Of a stretch of DNA of 64,000 nucleotides, positions 5,517-35,692 are shown piece after piece. The notes under the pieces are model-generated. The model saw only the letters and a program-made list of their open reading frames with translations. It was not told the DNA's origin and ran no database searches. A program made the translations under genes and the position numbers. The DNA lies in NCBI GenBank assembly GCA_016181175.1, contig JACOZV010000001.1:259519-323518 (forward strand), written 5' to 3'. The stretch's first letter is position 1; every line of letters starts with the position of its first letter. The DNA is from Candidatus Yanofskybacteria bacterium. Its GTDB lineage: Bacteria; Patescibacteriota; Minisyncoccia; 2-02-FULL-40-12; IGHO2-01-FULL-4-A.

Positions 5517-5665
5517 GCCATAGAACCTTTTGGGAATTTCGAAAACCTCCAGCGAGGTTTTCTCATCTTTTGTGATTGCCGCCATTTGTCAAGACACTCA
5601 CTTCGTTCGGTCATTGACAAAACCGTGCTGGCGGCAACCCCAGAAGTCCCAAAAGGCACTATGGC
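5517..5665. repeat. Structured palindromic element, family E (divergent copy E1)
   Basis: Outer stem GCCATAG..CCTTTTGGGA/TCCCAAAAGG..CTATGGC, side hairpin GAAAACCT-CCAGCG-AGGTTTTC, inner stems, ACCGTGC bulge. Confidence 0.7.
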
Positions 5666-5831
5666 TCGCTAAATTTTTGAAATAATAGATATCGCTAGAG
5701 ATCCTTTCGTGATTTCTTAAAAGTGTCTTTGGTATCGGCTTGGGGTTTGTAATTTTTGCACCCTTGACACATCGCAAATTCATATGCTAACCTATTACAA
5801 TATTAGTAACTTTAAAAATCGGGGGTTTTAA

Positions 5832-6331
5832 ATGTTAGAGCAAGCAGCCGAAGGTAACTTACTAATTGAAAGAAAGCCAATTGAGGTCTTGCTTTCAAAA
5901 ATAGAGAAATTAAAAAAGAGCAAAGAAAAAGAAGTAGCCGATTCGCTAAAAGCAGTAAAGAGAAGATTTCTCATGTGTATTTTTTGGTATACAGGTAAGG
6001 AGTATTCTTTAGATTACTTATGTATGGAATATTCTTCTGGTCTTTCGCGCCAAGAAATAATAATACAAGAAGTAATAATAGATGTACTTAGAAAATTTTC
6101 AGATCAAGAACTAGTAACTTTAGCGACCCATCTAATCCAGGAATCCGTCAAAAGGACGGATTACATTAAAAAAACCGGAAAAAGGTGTTGGTATTGTCGT
6201 TATTTACGCTAGGAATATATTGGTGCTACCTTACTCGGAATTTTGTTTATAGTTTTGGTTTAATAATTAGCAATTTGGACAAATTCAATGTTACTCCCCT
6301 CCAAGTACTAGAGGAATTTCTAAACGAGTAG
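5832..6331 (+). pseudogene. Hypothetical membrane protein, probably frameshifted at an A7 run (6168-6174)
   Basis: ORF 5832..6212; adding one A continues into a hydrophobic segment RKKVLVLSLFTLGIYW ending at TAG 6329-6331. Confidence 0.45.
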
Positions 6332-6420
6332 CGTAAAAAACTAGAGTGAGATAGAGTTGTAACAGTGTCTTGACTTGAAAAGAAAAATTATTTACCGCCA
6401 TTGCTGGCGGTTTTGTTTTT

Positions 6421-6804
6421 TCAAAACAAATACAAAAATAAAATTGCGCCGGTGAAGTTTAATGCAAGGTCAAATAAACCATCCTTCCATTCGTAATTCA
6501 CGCTTTTAAGTCTGAATTTACTTTTTATGTATCTTGAAAGCGTCGGAGCAGACGCAATCAAAAACTCCGCCGATTCCCACAAAATGCTGATGATACCAAG
6601 ACTTATTAAAATCAAACTGACGGAGCTGAAAAAACTTGAGAAAAACATAGCTACAAAAAACCCGCCCAAAAAATGCAATGTCTGGAAAAACCAGTAATGC
6701 CGAACACCAAAACCGTAGTACATTCCCACAACCAAATTGAGAACAAAAATACCCAATAGTATGGCAACCGATGCCATCATCGTGGCAAGATTTATGTTTT
6801 CCAT
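6421..6804 (-). CDS. Hypothetical 4-TM membrane protein
   Basis: Hydrophobic helices, HFLGG..WE..E..D pattern; likely start MENINL. Confidence 0.65.
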   Translation of the reverse strand: MENINLATMMASVAILLGIFVLNLVVGMYYGFGVRHYWFFQTLHFLGGFFVAMFFSSFFSSVSLILISLGIISILWESAEFLIASAPTLSRYIKSKFRLKSVNYEWKDGLFDLALNFTGAILFLYLF

Positions 6805-6891
6805 ATTTTTATTATACAAGAATACGAGCTTTCTCAAAAATTACAAACCAAGCTCACCCTCTGATTTTCTTACAACGTCATGCCTTTCTGC

Positions 6892-7010
6892 AAATTTTCC
6901 TCACCGTGCTATTGTTCCTGGCAATTTGCGGTTATCCATTCCCCCTTCGTCTTCTGACTCCGGGGCCCGCAAATTGCCAGCGGAACAATAAACGCCCGGT
7001 TCGTTAATTT
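6892..7010. repeat. Long imperfect palindrome
   Basis: TATTGTTCC..TGGCAATTTGCGG paired with CCGCAAATTGCCA..GGAACAATA. Confidence 0.55.
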
Positions 7011-7128
7011 ACTAGTCGGCAGACGAATGACGAAAATCAAGAGGTTTCGCTTGCCTTTGGTTTGTAATTTTTTAGCGAACCATTGTGCCTTTTGTGATTT
7101 TTGTGGATAGCAAAATGGAAAAGCGAGG

Positions 7129-7330
7129 CCATTATGCCTCATAGCACCGTCAAAAGAGTGGATTGTCCCGATTCTGCTTTGCAGAATCGAGGATCCTCGA
7201 TTTTCATGAATGAAAATCGGGACATGGTTTGCGAGCAGTATAATATTTCCTCACTGCGAGCAAAATCCACGCTTTTGACGGAATGTAGAATTCTCGCTGG
7301 GAATTCAAATGGTGATAGGAGGTATAATGG
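7129..7330 (-). repeat. Family E element (E2) with a nested family F insertion (7166-7222)
   Basis: Near-identical reverse complement of 28025-28167 plus a 57-bp two-hairpin insert; enclosed by a further E1-like inverted repeat (about 7075-7094 / 7354-7373). Confidence 0.85.
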
Positions 7331-7462
7331 CGAGCTAGTTTTTGAAATTACCAAAAGGCACTATGGCGAGCTGGTTTTTGAATTTGATAAAAATAGTGAT
7401 TCGTGCTATTTTCAATAACAAGTTTTTTAAAAATTAAATTATAGCCGGAGAGGAGGTGGAAT

Positions 7463-9124
7463 ATGGCCGACAAAATTCTTTTTGTTGTAAATAACGTTGA
7501 TTACATTGACCCGATGGGAGTGATGCTAATGTCGGCCTTGGCCAAACGGGAGGGATTCGCGACATTTCTAACCGTTTTAAGTCAGGACGACTTGGGCGAG
7601 GAATTGAAGCGTATTAAACCGGATATAGTCGCGCATTGCAGTGTCAAAACCGGCGAACAACAGTTTTTTCTAAAAGCCAACGACAAAATAAAGGATTATT
7701 CAAAAAGCATCGTTACGATAATGGGCGGTCCTCACCCGACCTTCAACCCTGACATTATTGAAGAAAGCCTAATTGATGCCGTTGGTATGGGCGAATGCGA
7801 TGTTGCCTGGCCCAAACTCCTTAAGGCGTTACGGGACAGAGAAGACACAAGCAACATACCAAATATCTTTACCAGAGATTCCTGGCTTTCTAAATGGAAA
7901 AATGAAACTGAAGCAAATCGTAATCGTTTTAGACACAAATTGACCCACCCTTTGGATGGCCTGCCTTTTTATGACAGAGAGATTGTTTACAGTAAAACTC
8001 ATCTTGGCAAATTTCCAATGCGCTGTTTTATGAGTTCCTGGGGCTGTCCGTTTGAATGCACCTATTGTTTTGAGCCAAAAACGAATGCCCAACAGCGCGG
8101 TCTGGGTCCGATATATAGGAGATACTCTCCAAGACGATTATGCGCCGAACTTAAAGAATTAAAAAATAGATATTCCACCCAGTTCATTAAGTTTTATGAT
8201 GATATGTTCGTTTTGAGCCGGAGCGTTGATCCTTGGCTTGCCGAATTTGCCGAAATTTACCCTCAAGAAGTCGGCTTGCCGTTTTTCTGCTTAACGCGAT
8301 GTAATGTTTTGACCAGAGAGAATCTTACCGTCCTCAAGAAGGCCGGCCTTCATTCAATAACAATGTCCATTGAGTCAGGTAATGATTATATCAGAGAAAA
8401 AGTTATAAAACGCCATATGACTCGGCCTGAAATTGAAGAGGCCTTTGCGCTTTGCAATGAAATGGGCGTAAAAACTTTTGCTAATTCAATTTTGGCTATT
8501 CCGGTAAAAAAGGAAATAATGGCCGAACAAGATAAAACCCCGATTGATTACGATTTTGATTCCCTGGAATTGAATCTCAAATCAAGAGTTACTTTTGGAG
8601 AATTTTCGCCGGTATATCCCTACCCAGGCTGTGAGCTTTCAGAATATGTAGTGGAAAACGGCTGGTTTGACTATACTGACTTTGGAAAACTTCACGCGAG
8701 TTATCAAAACGAGAGTCCGTTAAATTGTTTTACCCCACTGGAAAAAAGAATGCAAAGCAACATGTCGTTGCTGGGAACGGTATTTCTCGCTTTCCCGTTC
8801 TTATATTCCAGGAAATTTGCCGAATTTCTGTTCAAACTGCCGCTGGCAAAACTTTATTTTATTTTATACTTTTTCGTTAAGGGTTATCTAAATGTTTTCA
8901 AAATATATCCGATGAAATTTTCAGTTGTTAGCCTTTTGTTAAATATCCGCAGAAGCATAGCGTTAGAGTACAAGAAACATGCTCCCGGCGAGCGTATTTA
9001 TGAATCCAAGAGGACCATGTCTCAAGCGACTACGCCCATGCTTGGCGGTTTGCCGCAAGGCGGACTGATACCTCCACCGCCAAAGCCAAAAAAGAAAGAC
9101 GACATTTTTAAGATAATTGATTAA
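7463..9124 (+). CDS. Cobalamin-binding (class B) radical SAM protein
   Basis: N-terminal B12-binding region (GGPHPT, GECD), WGCPFECTYC, IESG; strong GGAGG RBS. Confidence 0.9.
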   Translation: MADKILFVVNNVDYIDPMGVMLMSALAKREGFATFLTVLSQDDLGEELKRIKPDIVAHCSVKTGEQQFFLKANDKIKDYSKSIVTIMGGPHPTFNPDIIEESLIDAVGMGECDVAWPKLLKALRDREDTSNIPNIFTRDSWLSKWKNETEANRNRFRHKLTHPLDGLPFYDREIVYSKTHLGKFPMRCFMSSWGCPFECTYCFEPKTNAQQRGLGPIYRRYSPRRLCAELKELKNRYSTQFIKFYDDMFVLSRSVDPWLAEFAEIYPQEVGLPFFCLTRCNVLTRENLTVLKKAGLHSITMSIESGNDYIREKVIKRHMTRPEIEEAFALCNEMGVKTFANSILAIPVKKEIMAEQDKTPIDYDFDSLELNLKSRVTFGEFSPVYPYPGCELSEYVVENGWFDYTDFGKLHASYQNESPLNCFTPLEKRMQSNMSLLGTVFLAFPFLYSRKFAEFLFKLPLAKLYFILYFFVKGYLNVFKIYPMKFSVVSLLLNIRRSIALEYKKHAPGERIYESKRTMSQATTPMLGGLPQGGLIPPPPKPKKKDDIFKIID

Positions 9125-9166
9125 ACAAAGACCCAGATCGGGTCTTTTAATTTAGCAAGGGGGTTG

Positions 9167-9471
9167 ACCCCGCACCTTTTCAGCACAATAATCACAGCAT
9201 GCACTGGTTATACATAATTAAAAGTAAGGAAAATGGAGAATTATATATCGGCAGCACAGGAAATTTAGTGAAAAGACTGGCCGAACATAATACTGGCAAA
9301 TCTAGAGCTACGACCAGATATAAACCATGGTTTTTTGTTTATATTGAAGGCTATTTTTCTAAGGATGATGCCTTGCATCGCGAACGGAATCTGAAATACT
9401 TTGGCAAAGTCTATGCCCAATTAAAAAGACGTATTAAAAATAGCCTTCAGGGTGCTGAAAAGGTGCGGGGT
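9167..9471 (+). mobile_element. Family B element carrying a GIY-YIG nuclease (20-bp perfect terminal inverted repeats, TG duplication)
   Basis: ACCCCGCACCTTTTCAGCAC (9167-9186) and its reverse complement (9452-9471); TG on both flanks. Confidence 0.8.
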
Positions 9472-9474
9472 TGA
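9199..9474 (+). CDS. Minimal GIY-YIG endonuclease
   Basis: LYIIKS..LYIGST..KRLAEHN..RERNLK; the C-terminus is encoded by the right inverted repeat. Confidence 0.9.
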   Translation: MHWLYIIKSKENGELYIGSTGNLVKRLAEHNTGKSRATTRYKPWFFVYIEGYFSKDDALHRERNLKYFGKVYAQLKRRIKNSLQGAEKVRG

Positions 9475-9548
9475 CTTTGTATTCCATTTTGATTTACTGG
9501 TTATAAATATCAAGGTTCTTTTAAATAAAATAAAAAAGGAGACAAATT

Positions 9549-10472
9549 GTGTCTGACGAAAAAAATGCCATTCCTCTCCAATCGAAAATCAAGCGGGTGA
9601 CCATTAAAACCTTGCATGACATGAAGAAAAAAAGACCGGAGCCGGAAATTATTTGTGCTTTGAGCATCTATGATTCTTTACATGCCCGGCTATTTGACAG
9701 GGCTGGCGGAGATATGATTATTGTCGGCGATTCTGTAGGTATGACTTTGCAGGGTAGAGCTAACACCCTGCCGGTAACAATGGATGAAATGGTTATGTTT
9801 ACCCAAGCTGTAAGAAGGGGCACGGATAGATTATTTGTTGTTGGTGATATGCCCTTGGGTTCGTATGAGGTTTCAAACGAAGAAGCGGTGCGTAATGCTT
9901 TGCGCTTTGTCAAAGAAGCGGGTTGTAACGCAGTGAAGGTGGAAACCAATCTTGATTACATTGACCGCATCAGAGTTATTGCCAGCGCCTGTTTGGTGGT
10001 GGCGCATATCGGTTTAAATCCCAACAAAGCCGAGATGCTTGGAGGTTACAGGACGCAAGGTAAGACAAGAGAAAGCTTTTTGGAATTAAGCAAGGTAATT
10101 GTTGAAGCTGAAAAAGCGGGTGCCTGTATAATTTTAATAGAATCGGTTACGGAAGAAATAGCCGAAATGCTAAAGTCCAAAGTTAATATTCCAGTATTTG
10201 GCATTGCCGCCGGTCGCAAGCTTGATGGCCAGCTTGTCATCAGTTCTGATTTACTTGGATTTTTCGAATGGCCGGGCAACCCCCCGATTCACTTTGAAAA
10301 ATATCTTACAGAAAGACAGGGCATTACGATCGGTGATGTTACCCTGGATGCTTTTCGCTGGTATGTCAAAGCCGTAAAGGAAAAAAGATTTCCAAGCGAC
10401 AAACATGTCCATCACATTTCAGCCGACGAGTTAAGTCAAGTGTTACAAACCAATAACAATTCATCAGCCTAA
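9549..10472 (+). CDS. panB: 3-methyl-2-oxobutanoate hydroxymethyltransferase
   Basis: YDS..A, IVGDSVGM, DMPLGSY, AVKVE, AHIGLNP, DGQLV motifs. Confidence 0.9.
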   Translation: MSDEKNAIPLQSKIKRVTIKTLHDMKKKRPEPEIICALSIYDSLHARLFDRAGGDMIIVGDSVGMTLQGRANTLPVTMDEMVMFTQAVRRGTDRLFVVGDMPLGSYEVSNEEAVRNALRFVKEAGCNAVKVETNLDYIDRIRVIASACLVVAHIGLNPNKAEMLGGYRTQGKTRESFLELSKVIVEAEKAGACIILIESVTEEIAEMLKSKVNIPVFGIAAGRKLDGQLVISSDLLGFFEWPGNPPIHFEKYLTERQGITIGDVTLDAFRWYVKAVKEKRFPSDKHVHHISADELSQVLQTNNNSSA

Positions 10473-10624
10473 GACCGTCTTAACGGTCTTTATTTTTAGC
10501 CGTGCGATTGATTTTCAGAGAATATTGTGTTATTCAATATGCAGAAAACGAGAACTTTAAAAACGTTATCATCTACCACAAGAAGGGGGATTATGCTATT
10601 TATTAGAATGAAACACAAACAGCG

Positions 10625-11368
10625 ATGGAAAAAATGAAACCAACATTAACCGTAATAATGCCGGCCTACAATGAGCTTAAAAATCTTAGGGGGGCTTTTA
10701 TAAGCGCAACCGGGGCCCTTAAAATAGCCGGTATTTCTGATTACGAAATAATAATCATAACCAACACGAAGCGTGATGGTAGCCACGACGGTACGCCGTA
10801 TGTTGCCGAACAAATCGTGAAGGAAGATTCCAGGGTTAGGCATATTCATAACAACTCTTACGTGGGCTTGGGTTTTAAATTTAGACAAGGCATTGGAGAT
10901 GCCCGGAAGAGCTTCATAACTTGGGTGCCGGGCGATAATGAAAATATTGAGGAGTCCGTTGCCGGCATCTTCAGACATATCGGCGAAGCCGATATGATTA
11001 CCAGTTATACTTCCAACACTCAAGTCAGGAAATGGAAAAGACGTTTTGTGTCCAGATGTTTTACTGAGTTTTGTAATTTGCTGTTTGGTTTGAGATTGAA
11101 GTATTACAACGGTATTTGTATTTATCCGACGAAACTACTCCAAAAAGTGCCGACGAAGTCCGATAATTTTGCATACATGGCCGAGATTATTATTTACTTG
11201 GTCAAATCCGGAGTTAGATACAAAGAGGTTCCAATGGAAATCAAACCCACTGCAATCTCATCTTCCTTTAAGTTAAAAAGTGTTTTTGAAGCTTTGGGCA
11301 CTATCGCTTTGTTATTTTGGAATATTCATTTTAAGAGGACAAGGATTAAAATTGGTTCAATAAATTAA
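10625..11368 (+). CDS. Glycosyltransferase family 2
   Basis: VIMPAYNE, DGSHDGT, PGDNEN. Confidence 0.85.
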   Translation: MEKMKPTLTVIMPAYNELKNLRGAFISATGALKIAGISDYEIIIITNTKRDGSHDGTPYVAEQIVKEDSRVRHIHNNSYVGLGFKFRQGIGDARKSFITWVPGDNENIEESVAGIFRHIGEADMITSYTSNTQVRKWKRRFVSRCFTEFCNLLFGLRLKYYNGICIYPTKLLQKVPTKSDNFAYMAEIIIYLVKSGVRYKEVPMEIKPTAISSSFKLKSVFEALGTIALLFWNIHFKRTRIKIGSIN

Positions 11369-11431
11369 ATTCAATCGGATTATATCCGATTTTTTATTGT
11401 GAAATAATTTTGCATGTGCTAAGTTGAACTT

Positions 11432-12322: not shown

Positions 12323-12401
12323 TCCTCTTTGATTTGACCTTATTTTAGTAATGGTTTATCTTGTTTGGGTGAAAGTTCTTTTATAAAGAAGAGGATAATT
12401 T

Positions 12402-12764: not shown

Positions 12765-12769
12765 GGAGG

Positions 12770-13539: not shown

Positions 13540-13577
13540 ATAGGACTTACGCGCATAGTCCTATGTAGGTCCAAATT

Positions 13578-13615: not shown

Positions 13616-13619
13616 GTGT

Positions 13620-15422: not shown

Positions 15423-17927
15423 ATGAATAATAAACTTAAAATATTTTTTGTGAGAAAAAACATTACACGTTTTTTTATTTTTTTAACGCCCGTAATAATT
15501 ACACTGGTTTTAATCGGCCCTACTCTTTGGGGCGGCAAGGTGTTTTTGGATTCCGCGCATTCTACGGTTCAATATTCGGCCCTGTTTTCCCTAAAGAGTT
15601 CTCTTAATTCCGGTGTATGGTTTCCGGTTTGGATTTCCCAATGGACAAGCGGATTTTCCCTCTGGCTACTTCCGGCGAATTTCGGGCTATTAAACCCGCT
15701 CCATATTATTCTGACTAAATTTTTAGATTTTGCTTTGGCGTCCCATATTCTTACCCTTTTTTATTTTATAGCCGGATTTTATGCGGCATATTTTTTGGGC
15801 AGGGCGTTGAGTTTATCCAGGGCTGCCTCCCTTATTGTCGCTCTAGCTTATGCTTTTAACAGTTTTAATGTTTGGTGGGGGCTTCTCCTTTCCTTTTCGT
15901 TTCTCTATTTTCTTTTGCCTTTTTTGTTTTTGACGTTGCTTAAGGCTTATCGGGGTGAGCGCAAGTTTATATATTGGTCGGCCCTTTTTATTTTTTTGGC
16001 TTGGCCGTTCGCTCTGCCCCAGATATTTTTATACTCGCTTATTGCGACATTTGCTTTTGCTTTGTATTTAGACTTTGCCAAACGTACGGAAGGTTTAGTT
16101 CAGAAACGCTGGCTGGCCATTAAAAGTTTTTTTTACTTTATCATCCCCGGCACTTTTTTGGCTCTCATTTGGTTGCTTCCGGTTTATGATTTTATTCAGC
16201 TTTCTTCCAGAGCCGGAGGTCTTGCTTTAGAGGCGGCAGGAGAAGGACGGCTTCTACCTTGGGATCTCATTTTTTCATATATCTATCCGTCTTTTTCAAT
16301 GCCCAAACTTATCCGCGAACATTTTTTATATATCGGTATTTTACCTTTTGCTTTAGCCATTTTTTCTTTGGTAAATTTTAGAAAAGACCGGCTGGTTAGA
16401 TTTTTTTTCATCGGTTATATTTTTATTATCTCTGCTTTATTTCCCGGTTCGCCTGTTTGGAGATTATTTAACATTACTCCGGTGCTTAATCTTTTCCGAG
16501 TGCCCCTGCAGTTACTTTTCGTGGGAAATTTTTTCTTGGCGATACTTGCTGGATTCGGTTTAGACGGATTGTCGGAAAACAAAACAATCTCGTATCTAAG
16601 GTTTTTCAAAAATTATGTCCGGGGATTGAAAATAATGGTTATATTTGGACTTGCGACGGCAATGGTTATAGCATTGATTATGAAGTTTTACAGGTCTAAC
16701 CTGCAAAATTTCGGTTATAATTATTTTGTTGAAAACTTGTTGCAATATACAAAATACCGTCCCTTGGAGCACTACTATGCCTTAATCAACGGATATTTTG
16801 ATAAGTTTTCTTGGCACGTATCTTTTCTAAATCCATATTTTTTGACCGCACTGTTTACGTTGAGTGCGGTTTTCGCCCTATTTTATTTTTACAGTCGGGG
16901 CAAACTTACATTTAACAACTTTAAAATAATCGCCGTTATTATTACTGTTCTTGATTTACTTTTCGTTTGGCGTGGCCACTACAGATTTATGCCCAGGGAT
17001 TGGTTAGACCCGGCTCCGGCGGCGGTATTTCTGAATTCAAGGGATAAAGAACCATTTAGGATTTATGTCATTTCCGAAGGGTATTTAGAGCTGGAAAAAA
17101 TGGGCTATGATAAATACGACCTCTCTAATTACAAAAAAGATATGCTTTTTAAACGGAGCCGGATGCTTGGTTTTGGATTAAACGGCGTATCTGGCATACA
17201 AGGTGAAATAACGATGCTTGATACGCGCCGTTATGCCAAAATTATAGATCTTATTACAGATTCAGACGACGGAAGGAGAATAGAACTTTCAACCGCTGAC
17301 AGAATTAAAGCATGGCAATCTTTGCAAAACAGAAATTTGCTTTCAATGATGAATGTAAAATACATTATTTCATCCTTTGACTTTAAGATGCCATGGAAAA
17401 AGATATTTGAAACCAAACCGGTTGAGGACGAGAAAATTATGACTTATGTTTATGAAAATACCGAAGTTTTGCCTAGGGTCTATTTTGCTAATAATGCAAG
17501 TTTTGCAGAACCAGACGAGTCCAGCACCAGTTTAGCCAAGGCCAAACTGGTGCTGGACGAGGCCAAAGCTTTTGACGCGTTACTGGCTATTAAAAACTTT
17601 AAGAACACAACGCTTGTTGAATGTGCGAGCGGGGATTGCGCTTATTCGGGCCAGCCGAATTTCAAAGATAGTCTGGAAATCATTGAAAAAAAAGAAGGCT
17701 ATTTAAAAGTTAAAACGCAAACCAAAAATCCAAGATATTTAGTTTATTCGGAGTCTAATTTGCCGTATTGGGAGGCGAGGATTGATGGGAAAATGTCCCC
17801 GATTCTTATGGCAAATTACGCGTATCAGGCGGTTTTGGTTCCACCGGGGGAGCATTTAGTGGAATTTCAGTATCCCGGCCCAATTACGCAGTTTAAGTAC
17901 TCACTCAAAAAACTGCTTGATTTCTAG
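15423..17927 (+). CDS. YfhO-like polytopic membrane glycosyltransferase (GT-C)
   Basis: Many TM helices; C-terminal W.A.IDG..ANYAYQAV.VP.GEH.VEF.Y motif. Confidence 0.8.
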   Translation: MNNKLKIFFVRKNITRFFIFLTPVIITLVLIGPTLWGGKVFLDSAHSTVQYSALFSLKSSLNSGVWFPVWISQWTSGFSLWLLPANFGLLNPLHIILTKFLDFALASHILTLFYFIAGFYAAYFLGRALSLSRAASLIVALAYAFNSFNVWWGLLLSFSFLYFLLPFLFLTLLKAYRGERKFIYWSALFIFLAWPFALPQIFLYSLIATFAFALYLDFAKRTEGLVQKRWLAIKSFFYFIIPGTFLALIWLLPVYDFIQLSSRAGGLALEAAGEGRLLPWDLIFSYIYPSFSMPKLIREHFLYIGILPFALAIFSLVNFRKDRLVRFFFIGYIFIISALFPGSPVWRLFNITPVLNLFRVPLQLLFVGNFFLAILAGFGLDGLSENKTISYLRFFKNYVRGLKIMVIFGLATAMVIALIMKFYRSNLQNFGYNYFVENLLQYTKYRPLEHYYALINGYFDKFSWHVSFLNPYFLTALFTLSAVFALFYFYSRGKLTFNNFKIIAVIITVLDLLFVWRGHYRFMPRDWLDPAPAAVFLNSRDKEPFRIYVISEGYLELEKMGYDKYDLSNYKKDMLFKRSRMLGFGLNGVSGIQGEITMLDTRRYAKIIDLITDSDDGRRIELSTADRIKAWQSLQNRNLLSMMNVKYIISSFDFKMPWKKIFETKPVEDEKIMTYVYENTEVLPRVYFANNASFAEPDESSTSLAKAKLVLDEAKAFDALLAIKNFKNTTLVECASGDCAYSGQPNFKDSLEIIEKKEGYLKVKTQTKNPRYLVYSESNLPYWEARIDGKMSPILMANYAYQAVLVPPGEHLVEFQYPGPITQFKYSLKKLLDF
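17519..17558. mobile_element. Family D 40-bp palindrome inserted in frame, with GA duplication
   Basis: GTCCAGCACCAGTTT/AAACTGGTGCTGGAC; GA on both sides; net +42 nt; related copy in secD. Confidence 0.75.
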
Positions 17928-17928: not shown

Positions 17929-18099
17929 TCTAAAAGCTTGGCAAATACTGCCTTCTATCACCGCTAGCAACCCCAGCGAGATTGCGTCGCTCCGTTGAAA
18001 GCGTGGATTCGCCTCGCAGTTCAACCATTATACTGCTCGGTGACCGTGCAATCCACCCTTTCAACGGTGCTATAAAGCAGTATTTGCCAAGCTTTTAGA
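17929..18099 (+). repeat. Family E element (E4) with 23-bp perfect outer inverted repeat
   Basis: TCTAAAAGCTTGGCAAATACTGC and reverse complement; CTATCACC..CCAGCGA..ACCGTGC..ACGGTGCTAT core. Confidence 0.85.
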
Positions 18100-27994: not shown

Positions 27995-28024
27995 CACTTG
28001 CCCCCATCAAAAATTATCGCTCGC

Positions 28025-28167
28025 CATTATGCCTCCTATCACCATTTGAATTCCCAGCGAGAATTCTACATTCCGTCAAAAGCGTGGATTTTGCTCGCAG
28101 TGTTTTACTATTATACTGCTCGCAAACCGTGCAATCCACTCTTTTGACGGTGCTATGAGGCATAATG
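28025..28167 (+). repeat. Family E element (E3)
   Basis: CATTATGCCTC/GAGGCATAATG outer stem; GAATTC-CCAGCGA-GAATTC hairpin; CCGTCAAAAG..GTGGATT inner stem. Confidence 0.85.
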
Positions 28168-28229
28168 CTTTGACCGAATTAGAAAAATAAAAACCGCCTC
28201 AGCCATGAAAGCATCGACGGTAGATTTAT

Positions 28230-28661: not shown

Positions 28662-28831
28662 TTTAATCTCCTATTTTTAAAAAACTAGTTTAAAACAGCA
28701 TAGCATAAATAGTGATATGTTGTCAAATTTTTGCTATGTTTCAGAATGCTTTCTCAAAAATTAAAAAACCTAAGCCGTCAACAGACGGCGGTTTTTATCA
28801 CTCCCATAATTGTTAAGGAGAGGATGTCAGT

Positions 28832-28907
28832 TTCCGGCGCAGGCGGACCCTTTTTGTGAAAAATCCCAGCAGGGTGGATTGAACAAAAAGGGTCCGCGGA
28901 GCCGGAA
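28832..28907. repeat. Intergenic GC-rich palindrome
   Basis: TTCCGGC..GCGGACCCTTTTTGT / ACAAAAAGGGTCCGC..GCCGGAA. Confidence 0.6.
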
Positions 28908-28949
28908 GATAAACTATTATGCTACCTTATTTTAATTTTTGAGGTCTAA

Positions 28950-30284
28950 CTAGCGGAATGCTTTTTTTAAGAGGATATTTATTGTTTTAAGTAAAATTCC
29001 CAGGTCTAAGATCAATGACCTGTTTTTTATGTAAAACAAATCATGCTGGAGTTTTTCATACGTATCTTTGATGGTCATGCCGCCGCGGAAGTCCAGCTTA
29101 TATTTGATTTGCGCCCAACCGGTCAGTCCCGGCTTGACCAAGTAGCGTTCTTCGTAAAAAGGGATTTCAGATTTTAATTTCTGGTGGAACTCGGGTCTTT
29201 CCGGGCGAGGCCCAACAAATGACATTTCGCCGCGCAATATGTTCCAAATTTGCGGTAGTTCGTCAATTCTTGTTTTGCGCAAAAACTTGCCGACTCGCGT
29301 AGTTCGAGCATCATTTTCAGCGGCCCAAATCGGACCCGTACTTTTTTCAATCTCCTGAAACATTGTCCTGAACTTTATTACGGTGAAAATTTTGCCGATT
29401 CGTCCCATTCGTCCTTGGTGATAGAAAACTTGACCACGCGAATCAAGTTTTATAGCTAAGATTATCAAGGGATAAAACGGCAGGGTCAGCAGCCCTATGA
29501 TTATGGTGCCGATTAAATCTAAAATTCTTTTTCCAGTTTCGTATCCGCGTCGGCTACCCTGAGAGAGGTTTTCCAAAAACCAAACCTGATCTATAGTTTC
29601 CAGTGGTATTCTTCCGGCAACTCGTTCATAAAAATCGGACAAGTTGAAAAAATTTATCCCAAAACCTACCAGGTGGTAAAACACGTCTATTATGTGCGGT
29701 ATCTTATAAACCGTCGGAGCCAGAACCAATGTCCGGATATTTTTTCTCTTAATCAGGTTGTCTAAAATTGCAGAAGCGGTTTTATCTCCAATATCAAGTA
29801 TGCCTAAGACGCCGTATCCCAGTTGTGGATTATTCAACAAAAAGTCGTAAAGCTCTTGAGATTGTTGACTCAAGCCGACTATTAATGTATTATTTTTGTA
29901 GCCGTTTTTGGCGGTGAGCCGATTAAAGAAAAAGCGCCAAAATCCTTGTAAGGCTGCAATAATGACAATAAAAACAAATAAGTTGGTTTTGGGGGCGATT
30001 CTAAAAAACTGGACAAAATAGAAGAAAAAAATAGAGATAGACGAAATAACGGCAATTGTATAAAAAAGATCGGAAAAAAAGCGGGCGTTATTTTTAGAAA
30101 GACCTATTTCATACAGATTGGAAATATAAAAAACTATTACCCAAACAACAAAAATAATGGTGAACGGTAGAAAGTGCATGCTGATCTGCTCGTCAAAACT
30201 ACGCCCATACCTTGCATAGAGGGTCAAAAAAAGCGCTAGATATAGGGTAATAATGTCGCCCAAGAAGAGTAAAAATTTACGCAT
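28950..30284 (-). CDS. Polyprenyl glycosylphosphotransferase (WcaJ/WbaP family)
   Basis: [34 protein letters not shown]; true start likely MRKFLL at 30284. Confidence 0.9.
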
Positions 30285-30381
30285 CCCGTACGAGACAGGA
30301 AATGATTTATCTGAGTAAATCATTTCCGTGCCCATTTAATCTACTTTATTAATCCCGCCTAGATAACCATCGTAACCATTT
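30283..30381 (-). mobile_element. Family A element (A2), truncated, lacking the left inverted repeat
   Basis: About 95 bp similar to the reverse complement of 22598-22691; supplies the ATG of the WcaJ-like gene. Confidence 0.8.
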
Positions 30382-30382
30382 C

Positions 30383-31345
30383 GGTATTGGAATGGTGGGG
30401 GAACCGATTAAAAGGTGGTTTGAAGAAAACCAAAAATATAGACGCGGAAAGGAACTGTTTTGTTACGATGCCGATCCCAAAAAGGGTTATAGCGATGACG
30501 TTAATTTGGCTGATATTATTTTTGTTGCCGTACCGACACCAACAAATCCTGATGGTAGCTGTAATGTTTCTATTGTACAAAGCGTTACCTCAACAATTAA
30601 TGACGGTAAGATCGTGATTATTAAATCTACAGTGCCGCCGGGGACAGTGGAGGGGCTGCAAAAGAAATATCCTAGCAAGAAGTTTGTTTTTAATCCGGAA
30701 TTTTTAACCGAGTCACAAGCTTGGCTTGATTTTATAAAGCCAAGCCGTCAGATTCTTGGCCACACAGCCCGAAGCTATGCTGACGTAAAAGAAATTATGG
30801 CTTTGCTTCCTCAAGCGCATTTTGAGCGCCCCTGGGCGAGTGATTATAGCAAGAAAGATATCAACGCTACCGAAGCGGAACTTGCCAAATATGCCAGCAA
30901 CGTTTTTGGCTATATCAAGGTAATTTATGGCAATATTTTAGCTGATCTGTGCCATGCTCTCGCAGTCAATTTTAAAAACAATAAAATAAATTCGGAAGTT
31001 ACCTACGAAAATATAAAAGAAGTTATTTCTGCAGATCCCAGAATCGGCCCGGCATGGCTCAATGTGGAGCATGGCAATTATTGCGGAGCCGGCGGATATT
31101 GTTTTCCCAAGGATATGAACGCCCTGATAAGTTTTGCAGAAAGTTTGGTTAAAGACTTGTCCAAGAATAAAAAGAACTTGGATTTGGTCACTTCTTTAAA
31201 AAAGGGTGTAGCTGTTTTAAGGGCTGTTACGGATTACAATAAGTCAATTCTTAATTTGCAGGGATTAACCATTGAAGATGTCTCGCGTCACGATAAAGAA
31301 ATTATTACGCTAAAACGCAAGCCGATACGAGTTAGAAAATCATAA
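30383..31345 (+). CDS. ugd: UDP-glucose/GDP-mannose dehydrogenase family protein, N-terminally truncated
   Basis: GIGMVG, FVAVPTP, KSTVPPG, NPEFL, GGYCFPKD; first beta strand missing. Confidence 0.75.
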   Translation, partial: GIGMVGEPIKRWFEENQKYRRGKELFCYDADPKKGYSDDVNLADIIFVAVPTPTNPDGSCNVSIVQSVTSTINDGKIVIIKSTVPPGTVEGLQKKYPSKKFVFNPEFLTESQAWLDFIKPSRQILGHTARSYADVKEIMALLPQAHFERPWASDYSKKDINATEAELAKYASNVFGYIKVIYGNILADLCHALAVNFKNNKINSEVTYENIKEVISADPRIGPAWLNVEHGNYCGAGGYCFPKDMNALISFAESLVKDLSKNKKNLDLVTSLKKGVAVLRAVTDYNKSILNLQGLTIEDVSRHDKEIITLKRKPIRVRKS

Positions 31346-31349
31346 AAAA

Positions 31350-32369
31350 ATGATCGATCAAATTATAAAAAAACGAAAAAAAGCAGTGGTAACCGGCGGG
31401 GCTGGTTTTATCGGGTCGCACTTAACGGACGCGTTGATAAAAGACGGTTTTGACGTTGTGGTTTTGGATAATCTTTCAACCGGCAAGAGATCGCAAGTCA
31501 ATAAAGCAGCCAAGTTCGTCAAAACAGATATCCGGAATCTTAAAAAAATCAAGCCATATTTCAAAGGAGCGGAATTGGTTTTTCATACCGCGGCTCAAGC
31601 GCGAATGCAGCCATCAATAAAAGATCCGACCCTTACTTTGGATAATAACGTAACAGGAACACTCAATGTTTTAATTGCGGCTAGCGATGCCGGAGTTAAG
31701 CGGTTAATTTACTCGGCTTCGTCTTCTTTTTACGGCGATCAAGAAACAGTGCCGTTTCATGAAGAAATGACACCAAATTTTAAAAATCCTTACGCGCTAT
31801 TCAAATATGTGGGTGAAAAACTATGCCAGCTTTTTACCGATTTGCATGGCTTAGAAACCGTTTCTTTAAGATATTTTAATGTCTATGGTCCGAGGCAATT
31901 GTCATCCGGTAATTATGCCACGGTAATTGGTATTTTTCTAAAACAAGAAAAACAGGGTAAGCCCCTTACAATTGTTGGTGATGGTAGAATGCGTCGAGAT
32001 TTCACACACGTTTATGATGTGGTAAGGGCAAATATGCTGGCGGCCCAATCCAAGAAAGTAGGCAGGGGTGAAGTAATAAATATCGGACCCGGCAAAAGTT
32101 ATTCAATAAACGAAGTGGCGGCAATGATTTTGGCACCAGATACATTCCAGTCGATGGGCGGTTCGCAGGCCAGAACCGTTGCAATTGAAAATTCACAACC
32201 CGAAGTTGTGCTTGCGGCCGCTCTTAAAAGTAACCGTGCTAAATATATTCCCCCGCGTATTAATGAATCTCAGCGCAGTTTAGCTAATAACTCAAAAGCC
32301 CGTGAACTTCTCGACTGGAAACCAACAATTTCATTTGAAGACGGCTTGGCGATGTTAAAAAAAATTTAA
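31350..32369 (+). CDS. NAD-dependent nucleotide-sugar epimerase/dehydratase
   Basis: VTGGAGFIGSH, YALFK, RYFNVYGPRQ, RDFTHV.D. Confidence 0.9.
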   Translation: MIDQIIKKRKKAVVTGGAGFIGSHLTDALIKDGFDVVVLDNLSTGKRSQVNKAAKFVKTDIRNLKKIKPYFKGAELVFHTAAQARMQPSIKDPTLTLDNNVTGTLNVLIAASDAGVKRLIYSASSSFYGDQETVPFHEEMTPNFKNPYALFKYVGEKLCQLFTDLHGLETVSLRYFNVYGPRQLSSGNYATVIGIFLKQEKQGKPLTIVGDGRMRRDFTHVYDVVRANMLAAQSKKVGRGEVINIGPGKSYSINEVAAMILAPDTFQSMGGSQARTVAIENSQPEVVLAAALKSNRAKYIPPRINESQRSLANNSKARELLDWKPTISFEDGLAMLKKI

Positions 32370-32436
32370 TTTATCTACTTTGAAGCAATTAAAAACCGGC
32401 TAGGCCGGTTTTTAATATTAGTGTAAGATTATTAGA

Positions 32437-34212
32437 ATGGAAAATAAAATTAAGTTGTACACTGTTTCTATTTTTGTATTTTTTATTTCGGTTTCTTTTA
32501 GCGCGAGTGCAGATACTCTTGGCCAAAATCAGCGGTTTTTTATCAGTTCGCAATATGACGCTCAATCACGCGAGTCAACTTCGGCTACCCTTAGGCATGT
32601 TTCAGAACACGCCTATTTTTATATTGCTGATGACTATTGGAATGTCATAAGTACGAATGCGCGTAATCAGGTTTTGAACAAAGTAGAAATTATTGCTCGT
32701 GAGTTCGACGGACGTATTTATCCTATTGAGACTCAATTTTTCGGTTCCGAACCCAATCCGGGTATTGATGGCGATTCTCGTATTACGATTCTAATGGCGC
32801 CGCTTATAGAAAACGCCGGTGGTTATTTTGATGCGGTTAATCAGTATAGCATTTCCGAAGCCAACAACTCTAACCAGAGGGAGATTATTTATCTGAACGT
32901 CAAAGAAGTGGCTGATCAAGCCAGGATGTTTATTTTTCTAGCCCATGAATTTCAGCACCTTATTTCTTTTAATCAAAAAGAAAAACTCCGAAATATCTAC
33001 GATGACATTTGGCTCAATGAGTTGAGGTCGGAATACGCGCCCACCCTGCTTGGTTATAACGATATCTTCCTGGGTTCAAATTTAGAAAAGCGTAGCCTTG
33101 ATTTATCAGATGCGCCATCCGACAGTTTAACCGAATGGAAAAACCTTCCGGCAGATTACGGTCAGATTGGCATGTTCAGTGAATATATAGCCGAACACTG
33201 GTCGCCTCAAGTAATAGCCGATACACTGAAGAATAATCTTAAAAGTATACCCAGTTTTAATTATGCGCTTTCGCAAAACGGATTTTCCGACAACTTCACT
33301 GATGTTTATCGAGATTGGCTTATTTCTAATTACTTGAACGACGATTCTTATAACGGTAAATTTGGTTATTCAAGGATAGACTTGGCCAATTTCAAGGTGT
33401 CAGCCACAAAAACCTTAAGTAATCTTGACGATAATGCTGCATTTCTTGTTTCTGGTTCTATAAAAGATTGGCAAGGCAGATGGTACGATCTTATTCAACT
33501 TGCGCCTGGTCAGAAGAACGTCTTGAAGATTTCTTTTACCTCGTCGTCACTGGCCAGTTTTTACGTTCCTTATGTTGTTTTTGATTCTACTGGTAAACAT
33601 CAATTATACATTTTCAATCCTACGCCTAGTTCTAACGCTATTTATGTTTCAAACATAGGAGCCGATGTTAGAAGAGTTTTGATTTTGCCTATTAAAAAAG
33701 ACAAACTTTCCAATTTTTTTATTAATGAAACGTCCGTACGGTTGGATACTACTTTTGAACGTGTTGCTTCGGTGCCGTCAATCATTTCCGCACCCGTTTC
33801 TGTAATGGCTGATTCTGTGCCATCTGTGTCTGATACTAAATACGAAATACCTAAAAATAATTTTCCCGACGGTTCTTTGATCCGCGCGCGCGGAGATTAC
33901 AAGGTTTATGTCGTAAAGGGTAAATGGCGAAGACACATAATAGATTCAAGGATTTTCAATTTTTATCCCGGACTTGGTTTTGAAAAAGTAACGGAAGTTG
34001 AACCGTCTATATTAAATCAGTATCAGGAAAGCGACCTTGTCCGTTATGCTGATAGCCAGCGAGTTTATAGTATTGATAAGATTGGTGTCCGCCACTGGTT
34101 AGATATAAGCGGCGCGCAATTCACTGCTTCTGGCCGTGCGTGGGACGCTATTTTTGAAGTTAATATAAGAGAGTTGAATTTCTACAAGATCGGGACTAGT
34201 ATAGTGGAATAG
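32437..34212 (+). CDS. Secreted zinc metallopeptidase-like protein (M30-like)
   Basis: Signal peptide, GGYF, AHEFQHLI..WLNE; C-terminal repeated surface domain. Confidence 0.7.
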   Translation: MENKIKLYTVSIFVFFISVSFSASADTLGQNQRFFISSQYDAQSRESTSATLRHVSEHAYFYIADDYWNVISTNARNQVLNKVEIIAREFDGRIYPIETQFFGSEPNPGIDGDSRITILMAPLIENAGGYFDAVNQYSISEANNSNQREIIYLNVKEVADQARMFIFLAHEFQHLISFNQKEKLRNIYDDIWLNELRSEYAPTLLGYNDIFLGSNLEKRSLDLSDAPSDSLTEWKNLPADYGQIGMFSEYIAEHWSPQVIADTLKNNLKSIPSFNYALSQNGFSDNFTDVYRDWLISNYLNDDSYNGKFGYSRIDLANFKVSATKTLSNLDDNAAFLVSGSIKDWQGRWYDLIQLAPGQKNVLKISFTSSSLASFYVPYVVFDSTGKHQLYIFNPTPSSNAIYVSNIGADVRRVLILPIKKDKLSNFFINETSVRLDTTFERVASVPSIISAPVSVMADSVPSVSDTKYEIPKNNFPDGSLIRARGDYKVYVVKGKWRRHIIDSRIFNFYPGLGFEKVTEVEPSILNQYQESDLVRYADSQRVYSIDKIGVRHWLDISGAQFTASGRAWDAIFEVNIRELNFYKIGTSIVE

Positions 34213-34237
34213 TTTTTTCAAAATTGGGAGGATAAAT

Positions 34238-35176
34238 ATGAAGTTGCCGGACTTTATAAGACAAAATGTTCCATTGGCCGGCTACTCTACGCTGGGAGTG
34301 GGCGGTACGGCTGACTATTTTACTGATATCAAAAGGATCAAAACATATAATTCCAGGTCTGAAGAAACTTACATTCAGGAAGCCAAGGCGGAGTTTTTTG
34401 TTAATCTGTGCGAAACTCATGAATTTGCAAAAGAAAACGGACTTGATATTTTTGTTCTTGGGCGTGGTTCTAATATTATGTTTGCCGATTCCGGTTTTCG
34501 GGGATTAGTTTTGCGCATGGGCATGTCGCGGGTGCATTTTTACAATGACGAATTATGGGTTGAAGCGGGAGTATTAGTTTCTGAACTGGTTACGCTGTAC
34601 GAAAATGGTTACATGGGATTGGAGTGTTTTGCAGGTTTACCCGGCACTGTTGGCGGTGCAATCTTCGGAAATGCCGGTTGTTACGGCGGACAGTTCTGGG
34701 ATGTGGTTGAGGAGGTTATGTTTTTTGACGGGGAATATTTTAAAACTATAAAAAAAGACCCGGTTCTGTTCGGCTATCGCCAGAGTATTTTTAAAAGAAA
34801 TCCCAACTGGATTATTACTGGCTGTCGTTTAAAATTTGAGCCAAAAGACAGAGAACTAGTTGTAAAAGAAACAAAAAGAATAAGAAAATTGCGCCAGACA
34901 AGTCAGCCAAAATCGCCCAGCGTTGGTTGCATTTTTAAAAATCCGGATGTTGACGGTGAAAAAGTATCAGCCGGTTTGCTTATTGAAAGAGCCGGTCTTA
35001 AGGGTATGTGCATTGGCGGGGCGATGATATCTTACGAGCATGCCAATTTTTTTATAAATCTTGGTGGCGCCATTGCAAGCGATTTTCTTAAGCTGATTAA
35101 AGTTGCCAAGAGCCGCGTTCTTGAACAATCAGGAATTTTACTGGAAGAAGAAATTATTCAAATCGGAGAGTTTTAA
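34238..35176 (+). CDS. murB: UDP-N-acetylenolpyruvoylglucosamine reductase
   Basis: GGTA, LGRGSN, GLPGTVGGA..GNAG, GCIFKNP, HANFFIN. Confidence 0.95.
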   Translation: MKLPDFIRQNVPLAGYSTLGVGGTADYFTDIKRIKTYNSRSEETYIQEAKAEFFVNLCETHEFAKENGLDIFVLGRGSNIMFADSGFRGLVLRMGMSRVHFYNDELWVEAGVLVSELVTLYENGYMGLECFAGLPGTVGGAIFGNAGCYGGQFWDVVEEVMFFDGEYFKTIKKDPVLFGYRQSIFKRNPNWIITGCRLKFEPKDRELVVKETKRIRKLRQTSQPKSPSVGCIFKNPDVDGEKVSAGLLIERAGLKGMCIGGAMISYEHANFFINLGGAIASDFLKLIKVAKSRVLEQSGILLEEEIIQIGEF

Positions 35177-35407
35177 CCCGCCATTAAGGCGGTTTTAATT
35201 TGCCGCCAAGTTATCCACTTTTTTATAATAAAAAAATTTTTTCGTGATATAATTAATAAGTAAGTGGAAAATATTTTTGATAACAAAAATATTTTTGAAA
35301 ACTTTTGACGGCTTGGTCAGTCGTCATATTAGGAGGGCGAGATAACTGATCGCTAGAAACTAGTTTCTAGGAACTAGCAAAAAGTTGTCTCGTGACTTCA
35401 AAGCCAA

Positions 35408-35449
35408 ATGGCAAAGAAAAAGAAGGCAAAGAAGAAGAAGAGAATATAA
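35408..35449 (+). CDS. Putative 13-aa lysine-rich peptide MAKKKKAKKKKRI
   Basis: TGnTATAAT at 35245-35253, AGGAGG at 35331 separated from the ATG by a hairpin, terminator at 35477-35501. Confidence 0.45.
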   Translation: MAKKKKAKKKKRI

Positions 35450-35476
35450 GCTTCTTCGCGCCGGAAGGCGTACTCC

Positions 35477-35501
35477 GAAAACCCCGCGTTGCGGGGTTTT
35501 C
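35477..35501 (+). terminator. Intrinsic terminator
   Basis: GAAAACCCCGC/GCGGGGTTTTC hairpin. Confidence 0.65.
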
Positions 35502-35529
35502 AATTTGTTTATTTTGTGATAAATTATAG

Positions 35530-35692
35530 GGGCTTAGCGAATAATACCTTCTATCACCATTTGTCGCCCCAGCGAGGCGACTGCATTCCGTCAAAAATAT
35601 TAATTTTGATTTTGTTGAAGAAATATTGTAACAAAATCAAACCATGCAATTAACACTTTTGACGGTGCTATAAGGTATTATTCGCTAAGCCC
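35530..35692 (+). repeat. Family E element (E5) with 21-bp perfect outer inverted repeat, 8 nt before hpf
   Basis: GGGCTTAGCGAATAATACCTT and reverse complement; GTCGCC-CCAGCGA-GGCGAC hairpin. Confidence 0.85.

Follow-up and report, generated by a model that had tools for sequence, protein, structure and literature searches.

Family E, the structured repeat found in five copies in the 64-kb stretch of DNA analysed here (the window), is a mobile, Y-shaped repeat without genes that occurs in ultra-small (CPR) bacteria. The form in which its shape is maintained appears to be folded single-stranded DNA (ssDNA), not RNA. The reading that we prefer, with a probability of about 0.6, is that of a non-autonomous element whose folded ssDNA is recognised and which is moved in trans. 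The five window copies are genuine. All of them were found at the coordinates and on the strands reported in the first-pass annotation (Table 1), and the window has 5 matches to the loop-plus-bulge pattern, whereas 100 shuffles gave 0.05 on average and never reached 5.

Elements are about 125–240 nt long. On the strand that carries TCGCTGG, they form a three-way junction in which an outer stem meets two hairpins: a short one with a conserved 7-nt loop, and a long one bearing a conserved 7-nt bulge and tandem G.A pairs. The perfect outer stems of 23 and 21 bp noted earlier belong to copies 3 and 5, the side stems differ around the common loop as described, and the compensatory change in the inner stem (CCGTCAAAAG/CCGTTGAAAG) was confirmed. 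The bulge, first given as ACCGTGC/ACCATGC, is present as ACCRTGC, and in copy 2 it is split by a 57-nt palindrome. The CCAGCGA loop is conserved, but it is not strictly fixed as had been claimed: in copy 1 it is 8 nt long (TCCAGCGA), and searches without a loop requirement returned CCGCTGG (loci L482 and L488), a 6-nt form (the hpf copy of G006), and a TCGCTGA sister of the family. Copy 1 represents a distinct subtype B, and the loop, bulge, topology, and ends are all that it has in common with subtype A (copies 2–5). The covariance model R2 is subtype-specific and found subtype A in 5 of 151 genomes of the class.

Table 1. Family-E copies in the window and their parts.
Feature	Position	Strand	Remarks
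Copy 1, subtype B	5517..5665	-	folding strand minus
Copy 1, terminal tandem-G.A module			widens copy to about 5513-5669
Copy 1, side-hairpin loop	5549-5555		
Copy 1, bulge	5622-5628		
Hollow subtype-B shell, left remnant	7074..7094	+	encloses copy 2, same orientation
Copy 2, subtype A	7129..7330	+	folding strand plus
Copy 2, bulge	7165 and 7223-7228		in two parts
Nested palindrome, 57 nt	7166..7222		unrelated; splits copy 2 bulge; directly 3' of minus-strand ATG
Copy 2, -10-like TATAAT	7239-7244		
Copy 2, loop	7294-7300		
Hollow subtype-B shell, right remnant	7351..7371	+	around copy 2
Copy 3, subtype A	17929..18099	-	
Copy 3, arms	17929-17951/18077-18099		perfect, 23 bp
Copy 3, loop	17973-17979		
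Copy 3, bulge	18043-18049		
Copy 4, subtype A	28025..28167	-	between convergent ORFs; standard ends reach about 28019
Copy 4, loop	28054-28060		
Copy 4, bulge	28126-28132		
Copy 5, subtype A	35530..35692	-	between murB and hpf
Copy 5, arms	35530-35550/35672-35692		perfect, 21 bp
Copy 5, loop	35569-35575		
Copy 5, bulge	35641-35647		

Stem positions are paired in 98% of cases, and both sides have changed in 25 of 47 pairs. The covariation from which selection on structure had been proposed is thus real, but alone it is no proof of selection, because template switching is able to create and fix stems together with compensatory changes (PMC8794818). The case is carried instead by features that go beyond template switching, namely the 2-bp junction helix, whose two pairs both covary and which is formed in 49 of 50 cells, and the non-canonical pairs, the tandem G.A being retained in 22/25 and 20/25. 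Part of the outer-stem covariation may still be due to template switching.

The suggestion that TCGCTGG marks the functional strand is borne out in so far as this is the strand that folds. The side-stem C.A mismatch of copy 3 reads G-T on this strand, which has the lower folding energy in 95 of 96 elements; outer-stem mismatches on it are G-T rather than A-C (99 vs 29) and A-G rather than C-T (164 vs 11). Among 170 distinct tip loops, computed with RNA energies, 35 are C(GNA)G triloops, none are the reverse, 3 are GNRA, and none are UNCG; closed minihairpins are split between the strands 50 vs 2. GCGNAGC minihairpins are extraordinarily stable in DNA but far less so in RNA (PMC13037366). RNA and DNA alike can have G-U and G.A pairs, and the only discriminators are the triloops and the antisense placement described below. 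The tip loops of the window copies are long and lack GNA triloops, and the GNA tips elsewhere could be co-oriented nested mini-repeats. For copy 4, folding z-scores on the two strands are -7.0 and -8.0 as RNA and -8.5 and -7.0 as DNA. An ssDNA substrate, one of the two options offered at first, fits best given the tip triloops, and the fold under selection is probably that of ssDNA exposed in replication or transformation.

Element mobility and polarisation at stop codons had both been missed in the earlier reading. By automatic gene calls, the gene next to the side-hairpin end lies on the CCAGCGA strand and points into the element for 68 of 92 elements, and genomes with this polarity outnumber the others 33 to 11 (3 ties; p 0.001; because elements share descent, p values here overstate the significance). 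Of 19 elements between convergent genes, 17 have the side-hairpin end as the nearer of the two. Where an element abuts a stop codon, its folding strand is usually antisense to the gene concerned. In a second, GTDB-wide set the polarity is weaker (22 vs 14, p 0.24; 15 vs 3 within 65 nt). TAG makes up 26 of 50 adjacent stops, compared with backgrounds of 77/254 and 126/502, an enrichment absent in the second set (5/15). Within the window only copy 3 abuts a stop codon, starting 1 nt past the TAG (17925–17927) of the ORF at 15423–17927. An origin of the far arm by inverted copying of the host gene end was rejected at ndk, where the ORF enters the element arm, which supplies TAA. Over 3–4 nt it may apply at rplN (G000) and at hpf (G006), where the host TGA pairs with a TCA.

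A structured RNA transcribed from the TCGCTGG strand (an ncRNA, a ribozyme, or an element with an RNA intermediate), whose antisense copies survive as those in sense orientation would cut or block the mRNA, is unlikely; an ncRNA or ribozyme-like motif had been the other option offered at first, and it is not supported as the lead reading. The G-U pairs, tandem G.A, three-way junction, and covarying 2-bp helix of family E are of a type usual in RNA motifs, and toxicity would fit the avoidance of the sense orientation. Subtype B also contains an AUGA-stem-GAA(A) stretch, which may resemble the hammerhead core; subtype A lacks it. The folding strand is usually untranscribed and the tips are neither GNRA nor UNCG, which makes this explanation less likely. 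There is no promoter upstream of the element, and the -10-like TANAAT conserved at the tip (34 of 96 elements on one strand, 0 on the other) would yield the 3' half only. Rfam, proposed as a check, gave no family at the gathering threshold, and on seven loci the best match, with an E-value of 0.11, scored far below the cut-off. In 14 co-directional copies the folding strand is the sense strand. Other possible resemblances are to the plasmid ssoA CS-6 motif, the DnaG CTG site, and Chi.

Mobility is evident from filled and empty sites among relatives, from nesting, and from in-frame copies within genes. The 776-kb genome holds 13 copies and one divergent copy; core-pattern matches, some of them by chance, occur in 67 of 301 genomes of the class, and several genera reach 10–27 pattern matches per 0.7–0.9-Mb genome. 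The rplN–rplX spacer is empty in G005 and G001; family E occupies it in G000 and G003, as do other repeats in G006 and G004. At ndk, a copy is present in G000 and G006, and the site is empty in G014, G016, and G007; the site of copy 5 is empty in the relative G006, which carries a copy at the hpf stop, a position without one in the window. Two in-frame copies lie in uvrC and dnaX, outside the window, and decayed copies exist (e.g., C1:119681). Neither a consistent target duplication nor sharp ends were seen across elements: a duplication of at least 4 bp at the stem base occurs in 1 of 94 (null 0.9), the ends being ill-defined, and the GCGAG motif that belongs to the element itself makes up most of the excess obtained when the ends may slide, with a 4–5-bp repeat at the ndk site only. 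The standard terminal end is present in 13 of 96 elements. By GC skew, the copies of G000 are split 5 vs 8 between replichores, which is uninformative. Contigs from four DNA runs had no joint skipping copy 3, 4, or 5 among the 15 joints listed of 41.

No copy with an ORF inside was found. Flanking genes are varied housekeeping genes with no cluster of more than three members, and the consistently linked protein gene that had been suggested as a lead was not found. Shared ends enclose other cores, all non-coding; scans with the end motifs (3 metagenome and 2+15 genome loci) gave non-coding cores or solo ends only, among the 13 loci listed. In viral contigs, a loose pattern returned 120 rows, four with a 5–6-bp side stem and none with the family architecture on inspection, and two specific patterns had 0 matches. 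A screen for GIY-YIG, Y1, IS110, DUF559, and IntI proteins linked no moving enzyme to family E. In five high-copy genomes a copy lies near 1 of 25 GIY-YIG loci (about 1.2 kb off) and 0 of 7 Y1 loci. In G000 the count is 0 of 1, and a separate 23-nt palindrome accompanies that Y1 gene. These genomes commonly carry small GIY-YIG genes (7 in G000), and those seen have other flanks; one decayed copy in G000 adjoins a GIY-YIG gene bearing its own inverted repeats. Small GIY-YIG genes were not found in G037 (17 pattern matches), nor Y1 in G016, G009, and G008. IS110 was detected in 1/5 genomes (weakly) and DUF559 in 0/5; IntI (TIGR02249) remained below the cut-off in 5/5, with only a Xer-like gene scoring (81–86 bits vs 265).

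Given an ssDNA fold, it is somewhat short of an even bet that a protein encoded elsewhere, a strand-specific reader of ssDNA hairpins, moves family E. Candidates would be an HUH/Y1 transposase like that of REPINs, or a small GIY-YIG nuclease of the Ssn type. Such a protein would bind the loop, bulge, and ends, excise or copy the element, and insert it in fixed orientation beside a short motif rich in T and A, TAG or TAA for instance. Such a motif would be available at stop codons, the least harmful place, where the element end can rebuild TAG, and targeting them in fixed orientation would account for the polarity. Purifying selection would clear most other insertions; the arms would then drift, and template switching probably turns some of them into long locus-specific palindromes.

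It is also conceivable, though quite unlikely, that family E is a class-wide folded ssDNA of RNA-like complexity that has no transposase of its own, either because a housekeeping protein of the host moves it or because it is catalytic itself. It would then be a natural DNA aptamer or a deoxyribozyme-like mobile element, and the shared ends around unrelated cores would represent a modular ssDNA "language" of CPR genomes. The conserved loop and bulge may touch in three dimensions.

A host regulatory module placed after genes, i.e., a terminator, a 3'-UTR stabiliser, or a portable promoter, is improbable. Stop-codon adjacency and polarity would suit it, as would the persistence of orthologous copies with compensated arms (5 of 6 differences between the ndk arms of G000 and G006 are matched by compensation) and the one-strand TANAAT. 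However, the better-folding strand differs from the mRNA strand, TANAAT copies show no bias towards a downstream sense gene (13 vs 20), and copy 1 sits behind a separate terminator-like hairpin (5451–5468). Empty sites in relatives, decaying copies, and in-frame copies in genes also argue against such a role.

Still less probable is the view that the repeats are decaying, that their structure is not under selection, and that most of the covariation is a mutational side effect of template switching. Stems can arise and become fixed in this way (PMC8794818). In copy 5, whose upper stem has lost the tandem G.A mismatch, and in several relatives, mismatches are swapped for perfect palindromes, and the long perfect arms differ from copy to copy. 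Nevertheless, template switching should give strand-symmetric perfect pairs and cannot keep tandem G.A, the bulge, or G-T over A-C at 99:29; it would presumably have removed the internal loop adjacent to the 2-bp helix that covaries, and the core is retained across the whole class.

Least probable is a retron-like cycle, in which host read-through RNA of the CCAGCGA strand is copied by a reverse transcriptase (RT) into TCGCTGG-strand DNA that folds and integrates: it would jointly explain the sense placement behind genes and the DNA-type folding of the opposite strand, the CCAGCGA-strand RNA would have the retron ncRNA order (arm, small hairpin, long hairpin, arm), and RT is present in 5/5 high-copy genomes tested, yet RT also occurs in 49/60 relatives, including element-free genomes, was not found in G001 (8 matches), and has next to it a region resembling a template repeat and a small ORF in antisense, a DGR-like arrangement, with no family-E copy in the listed flanks of seven RT loci, while retron arms pair in RNA and the family-E arm wobbles favour the opposite strand.

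CPR genomes are regarded as stripped down, and despite this family E inserts at stop codons and within core genes. If the ssDNA reading is true, its DNA fold is far more elaborate than REP, SRM, and attC hairpins and points to a new enzyme that reads ssDNA structure. For RNA-motif mining, family E is a warning that a DNA element can give strong covariation with G-U and G.A pairs; a census of tip loops combined with strand polarity provides a cheap discriminator between DNA and RNA elements. No description of family E was found in the literature; since supplements, like subscription papers, lay outside that search, a motif table in some supplement could hold it.

Among known systems, integron attC sites resemble family E in position, lying after a gene with the antisense strand folded. 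The boxes at the attC stem base, RYYYAAC and GTTRRRY in the consensus, occur in 0/96 elements. The conserved terminal inverted repeats that a classical MITE has in common with a transposase-bearing element were likewise not seen. The attC sites are imperfect hairpins recognised on one strand as ssDNA, with extrahelical bases and variable stems (PMC2095811), as in family E, which differs in its lack of cassette arrays, its housekeeping-gene flanks, and its three-way junction.

REP/REPIN elements (RAYT, TnpA-REP, Y1 HUH) are also gene-less extragenic palindromes located mostly downstream of genes, presumed ssDNA hairpin substrates with some copies within ORFs, and their GTAG ends often supply TAG stops (PMC3733652). 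Family E is similarly extragenic, downstream of genes, and stop-supplying, but REP units measure 20–40 bp, in contrast to a branched fold of 125–240 nt with a conserved loop and bulge. A GTAG/GGAG tag at the hairpin foot occurs in 9/96 elements on one strand and 7/96 on the other, and no Y1 gene flanked by family E was found. The NTS/SRM repeats share strand specificity as ssDNA hairpins with family E: SsnA acts on its hairpin repeat in ssDNA form, cuts a single strand of it, and leaves RNA alone. They are simple hairpins of 20–50 nt found in 71% of ssnA flanks (PMC11893778), whereas family E lies near 1/25 GIY-YIG loci in the five high-copy genomes. The bcr1 repeat of the Bacillus cereus group is about 155 nt long, branched with compensatory changes, patchy between strains, and without a known enzyme; it differs in having direct repeats of 5 bp, and its description is that of a transcribed repeat which folds as RNA (PMC3184786). 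Compared with it by description only, family E has no consistent duplication, and it is usually the untranscribed strand that folds, with DNA-type tips. ERIC and RPE are further orphan structured repeats of this kind, and RPE, like some copies of family E, is inserted in frame.

All five copies of family E, a gene-less repeat with a CCAGCGA loop, lie where the first-pass annotation had placed them, and its perfect outer arms of 23 and 21 bp are present at both lengths. The combined loop and bulge pattern has five occurrences in the window, compared with a mean of 0.05 for shuffled sequences. The genome of the window (G000; 776 kb, seven contigs), CPR-like in its size and gene content, carries 13 full copies, all intergenic, plus a divergent one; nine are of subtype A (including copies 2–5) and four of subtype B (including copy 1). 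The Rfam search proposed earlier gave nothing at the gathering threshold and, for seven loci at a relaxed threshold, chance-level matches only. Elsewhere in the window of this CPR genome, a proteasomal ATPase gene is followed by two genes of the Pup-ligase family.

Coordinates of family E copies and other features (window positions unless a contig, genome or locus is named)
Feature	Location	Remark
Copy 1	5517–5665	subtype B
Copy 2	7129–7330	subtype A
Copy 3	17929–18099	subtype A
Copy 4	28025–28167	subtype A
Copy 5	35530–35692	subtype A
TATAAT-like hexamer at tip	7239–7244	folding strand
TATAAT-like hexamer at tip	18027–18032	folding strand
TATAAT-like hexamer at tip	28110–28115	folding strand
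Palindrome in copy 2 bulge	7166–7222	57 nt
Piece of this palindrome	G000 C3:194562	25 nt
Proteasomal ATPase, Pup-ligase-family genes	57880–62956
Small GIY-YIG gene	9199–9474
Small GIY-YIG gene	45317–45570
Small GIY-YIG gene	G000 C1:119909
Small GIY-YIG gene	G000 C3:49825
Small GIY-YIG gene	G000 C3:111623
Small GIY-YIG gene	G000 C4:8284
Small GIY-YIG gene	G000 C6:75817
Y1 transposase-like gene	G000 C6:40050–40780
RT	G000 C3:2700–4300	330–350 aa
In-frame copy, host ORF	L260 518–1936
In-frame copy, host ORF	L318 58–1656
In-frame copy, host ORF	L307 235–1926
TCGCTGA-loop sister family	G006 C1	L228, L443, L440, L225
TCGCTGA-loop sister family	G004	L226
TCGCTGA-loop sister family	G005	L224
Non-coding core, subtype-B-like ends	G000 C6:117037–117300	right end missing
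Non-coding core, subtype-B-like ends	L480, L481, L487

Family E is mobile. Between rplN and rplX there are 2 nt in the relative G005 and 16 nt in G001; the spacer contains family E in G000 and G003 and different repeats in G006 and G004. Across these six genomes of the genus, three repeat types occupy the spacer in four and two are empty; it is an insertion hot spot within a ribosomal operon. The site of copy 5 is empty in G006, the sole relative read there, and the hpf stop carries a copy in G006 and none in the window. Upstream of ndk, G000 and G006 carry an element that G014, G016 and G007 lack; it lies within the final codons of the gene preceding it, whose stop is provided by the element arm. 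The 400 nt upstream of mreB contain family E in one of seven genomes of the genus. Long ORFs contain three copies in frame: one in uvrC, one in dnaX and one in a membrane protein gene with no Pfam match. Genes neighboring the 96 elements of our first set (104 candidates, less eight with weak arms or ORF overlap) are housekeeping genes, the largest cluster having at most three members.

Copy 2 bears a nested palindrome and is itself enclosed by a hollow subtype-B shell. The palindrome directly follows a minus-strand ATG, and a 25-nt piece of it recurs at G000 C3:194562. Family E ends also surround other non-coding cores, of which there are at least three; a TCGCTGA loop marks one of them. This sister family has subtype A ends, occurs in long and short forms, and is found at rplN, mreB and ddl and before secA; two more cores of about 250 nt lie within subtype-B-like ends.

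The core pattern is present in 46 of 60 relatives, with 15 matches in all for a backwards control, and in 67 of the 301 class genomes, with at least 14 control matches among those listed. Hence, single matches may be due to chance; many are clearly structured. Relatives retrieved by pattern have Parcubacteria and Patescibacteria titles. Outside the family, a compact form predominates. A GTDB-wide scan for it yielded at least 120 loci; among the matches listed, 93 distinct loci have a side stem of at least 5 bp, 80 have a bulge variant, and most record titles name Patescibacteria. A few structured matches are titled Planctomycetes, Thermotogae, WOR-3 or Omnitrophota, the labels being those of the titles. 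Two specific patterns detected no family E in viral contigs.

On the strand carrying TCGCTGG, the layout is outer arm, long hairpin, junction, side hairpin, outer arm. The long hairpin has a 7-nt GCAYGGT bulge and tandem G·A pairs, and the side hairpin comprises 6–7 bp and a TCGCTGG loop. The covariation claimed for the stems is upheld in subtype A: in eight subtype-A copies of G000, 98.1% of cells are paired and 25 of 47 pairs have changed on both sides. None of 500 shuffles reached the observed pairing and covariation, and slid structures were 34–44% paired, a comparison favoring the test structure, since it was derived from one of the eight. MAFFT was used to align 25 of the 32 subtype-A matches (seven divergent or insertion-bearing ones excluded); there, the side hairpin is paired in 150/150 cells and the 2-bp junction helix in 49/50, with all six and both pairs covarying, respectively; the tandem G·A is retained in 22/25 and 20/25. 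Copy 5 has lost the G·A pair and forms a perfect palindrome instead. Loop and bulge are invariant in this alignment, which is partly circular, as most loci were retrieved with those motifs; variants turned up once the search no longer demanded them. A TATAAT-like hexamer is retained at the subtype A tip on the folding strand (34/96 vs. 0), including in copies whose stem sequences diverge.

Family E has one folding strand and a polarity relative to genes. Under either energy set, 95 of the 96 elements fold better on the TCGCTGG strand. Outer-stem mismatches on that strand are biased toward G-T over A-C (99 vs. 29) and A-G over C-T (164 vs. 11), as counted in alignments unbiased to either strand, with part of the mismatches inherited from common ancestors. 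The TCGCTGG strand is usually not the transcribed one: in 68 of 92 cases (33 vs. 11 genomes), the gene flanking the side-hairpin end is oriented toward the element, with CCAGCGA on its sense strand, and of 19 elements between convergent genes, with stop codons on both sides, 17 lie closer to the gene at their side-hairpin end. In the second, GTDB-wide set, polarity is not significant overall (22 vs. 14) and stands at 15 vs. 3 within 65 nt, among the matches listed. In the window, copy 3 alone abuts a stop codon. The 13 copies of G000 have no replichore bias.

Compensatory changes can arise without selection by template switching, as reported in PMC8794818, and the long copy-specific arms may be its products; when the arms at the ndk site are compared between two genomes, five of six differences have a matching change. 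Yet template switching is strand-symmetric and erases mismatches, and so would not explain the retained G·A pairs, the bulge, the wobble bias or a 2-bp helix across an internal loop. We infer selection on the core, most simply during copying of the element.

Tip loops of the long hairpin discriminate between DNA and RNA. C(GNA)G triloops, with each of the four bases at N, close 35 of 170 distinct tips (folded with RNA energies), compared with none for the reverse motif, three for GNRA and none for UNCG. As described in PMC13037366, DNA minihairpins of the GCGNAGC type have extraordinary stability, far above that of their RNA equivalents, the RNA melting figure there referring to a four-base-loop form. 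Window copies have long tip loops, and the triloop evidence stems from compact relatives, whose tips could alternatively be co-oriented mini-repeats. We favor a fold of single-stranded DNA, with a probability of about 0.7.

A protein reading ssDNA hairpins would act in trans to move such elements. A short oriented target available at every stop codon, together with loss of harmful insertions, would account for their placement, convergent pairs included. TAG constitutes 26 of 50 adjacent stops in the first set (background 25–30%) and 5 of 15 in the second, among the matches listed. Many element ends read TAG-CTCGC, so that the first base of the element can rebuild TAG, and GTAG REP ends likewise rebuild TAG stops, according to PMC3733652. 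PMC11893778 describes SsnA, a GIY-YIG protein of 94 residues, which cleaves a single strand of a hairpin repeat in ssDNA form and does not act on RNA.

In five high-copy genomes, family E was found near one of 25 GIY-YIG loci and none of seven Y1 loci, and high-copy genomes variously lack GIY-YIG or Y1. IS110, DUF559 and IntI each failed as the linked enzyme, as did an RT, nearly universal in the order (49 of 60 relatives). No copy with an internal ORF was found among the matches listed, nor any consistent target duplication. Small stand-alone GIY-YIG genes number seven in G000. Several of them have short inverted repeats of their own; one contains a TAA in its reading frame, one carries an internal deletion, and one is located in the 23S rRNA region. 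The Y1 transposase-like gene of G000 is flanked on both sides by a 23-nt palindrome, of which two further, degenerate copies lie within the coding sequence. The RT locus includes an AAC-rich region resembling template repeats and a small antisense ORF overlapping the RT start; at another locus (L459), a branched palindrome with CCAGCGA begins a few bases past the RT stop codon.

Family E does not qualify as a REP, Ssn, attC, MITE or retron element by the membership tests applied, and no published description was found in the article texts searched. Family E is real, apparently undescribed in print, and belongs as a variant among orphan palindromic mobile repeats, probably with an ssDNA fold. 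It would work similarly to REPINs or SRMs; it resembles attC (PMC2095811), which likewise follows a gene and folds on the antisense strand, and shares its size and branched covarying fold with bcr1, as described in PMC3184786.
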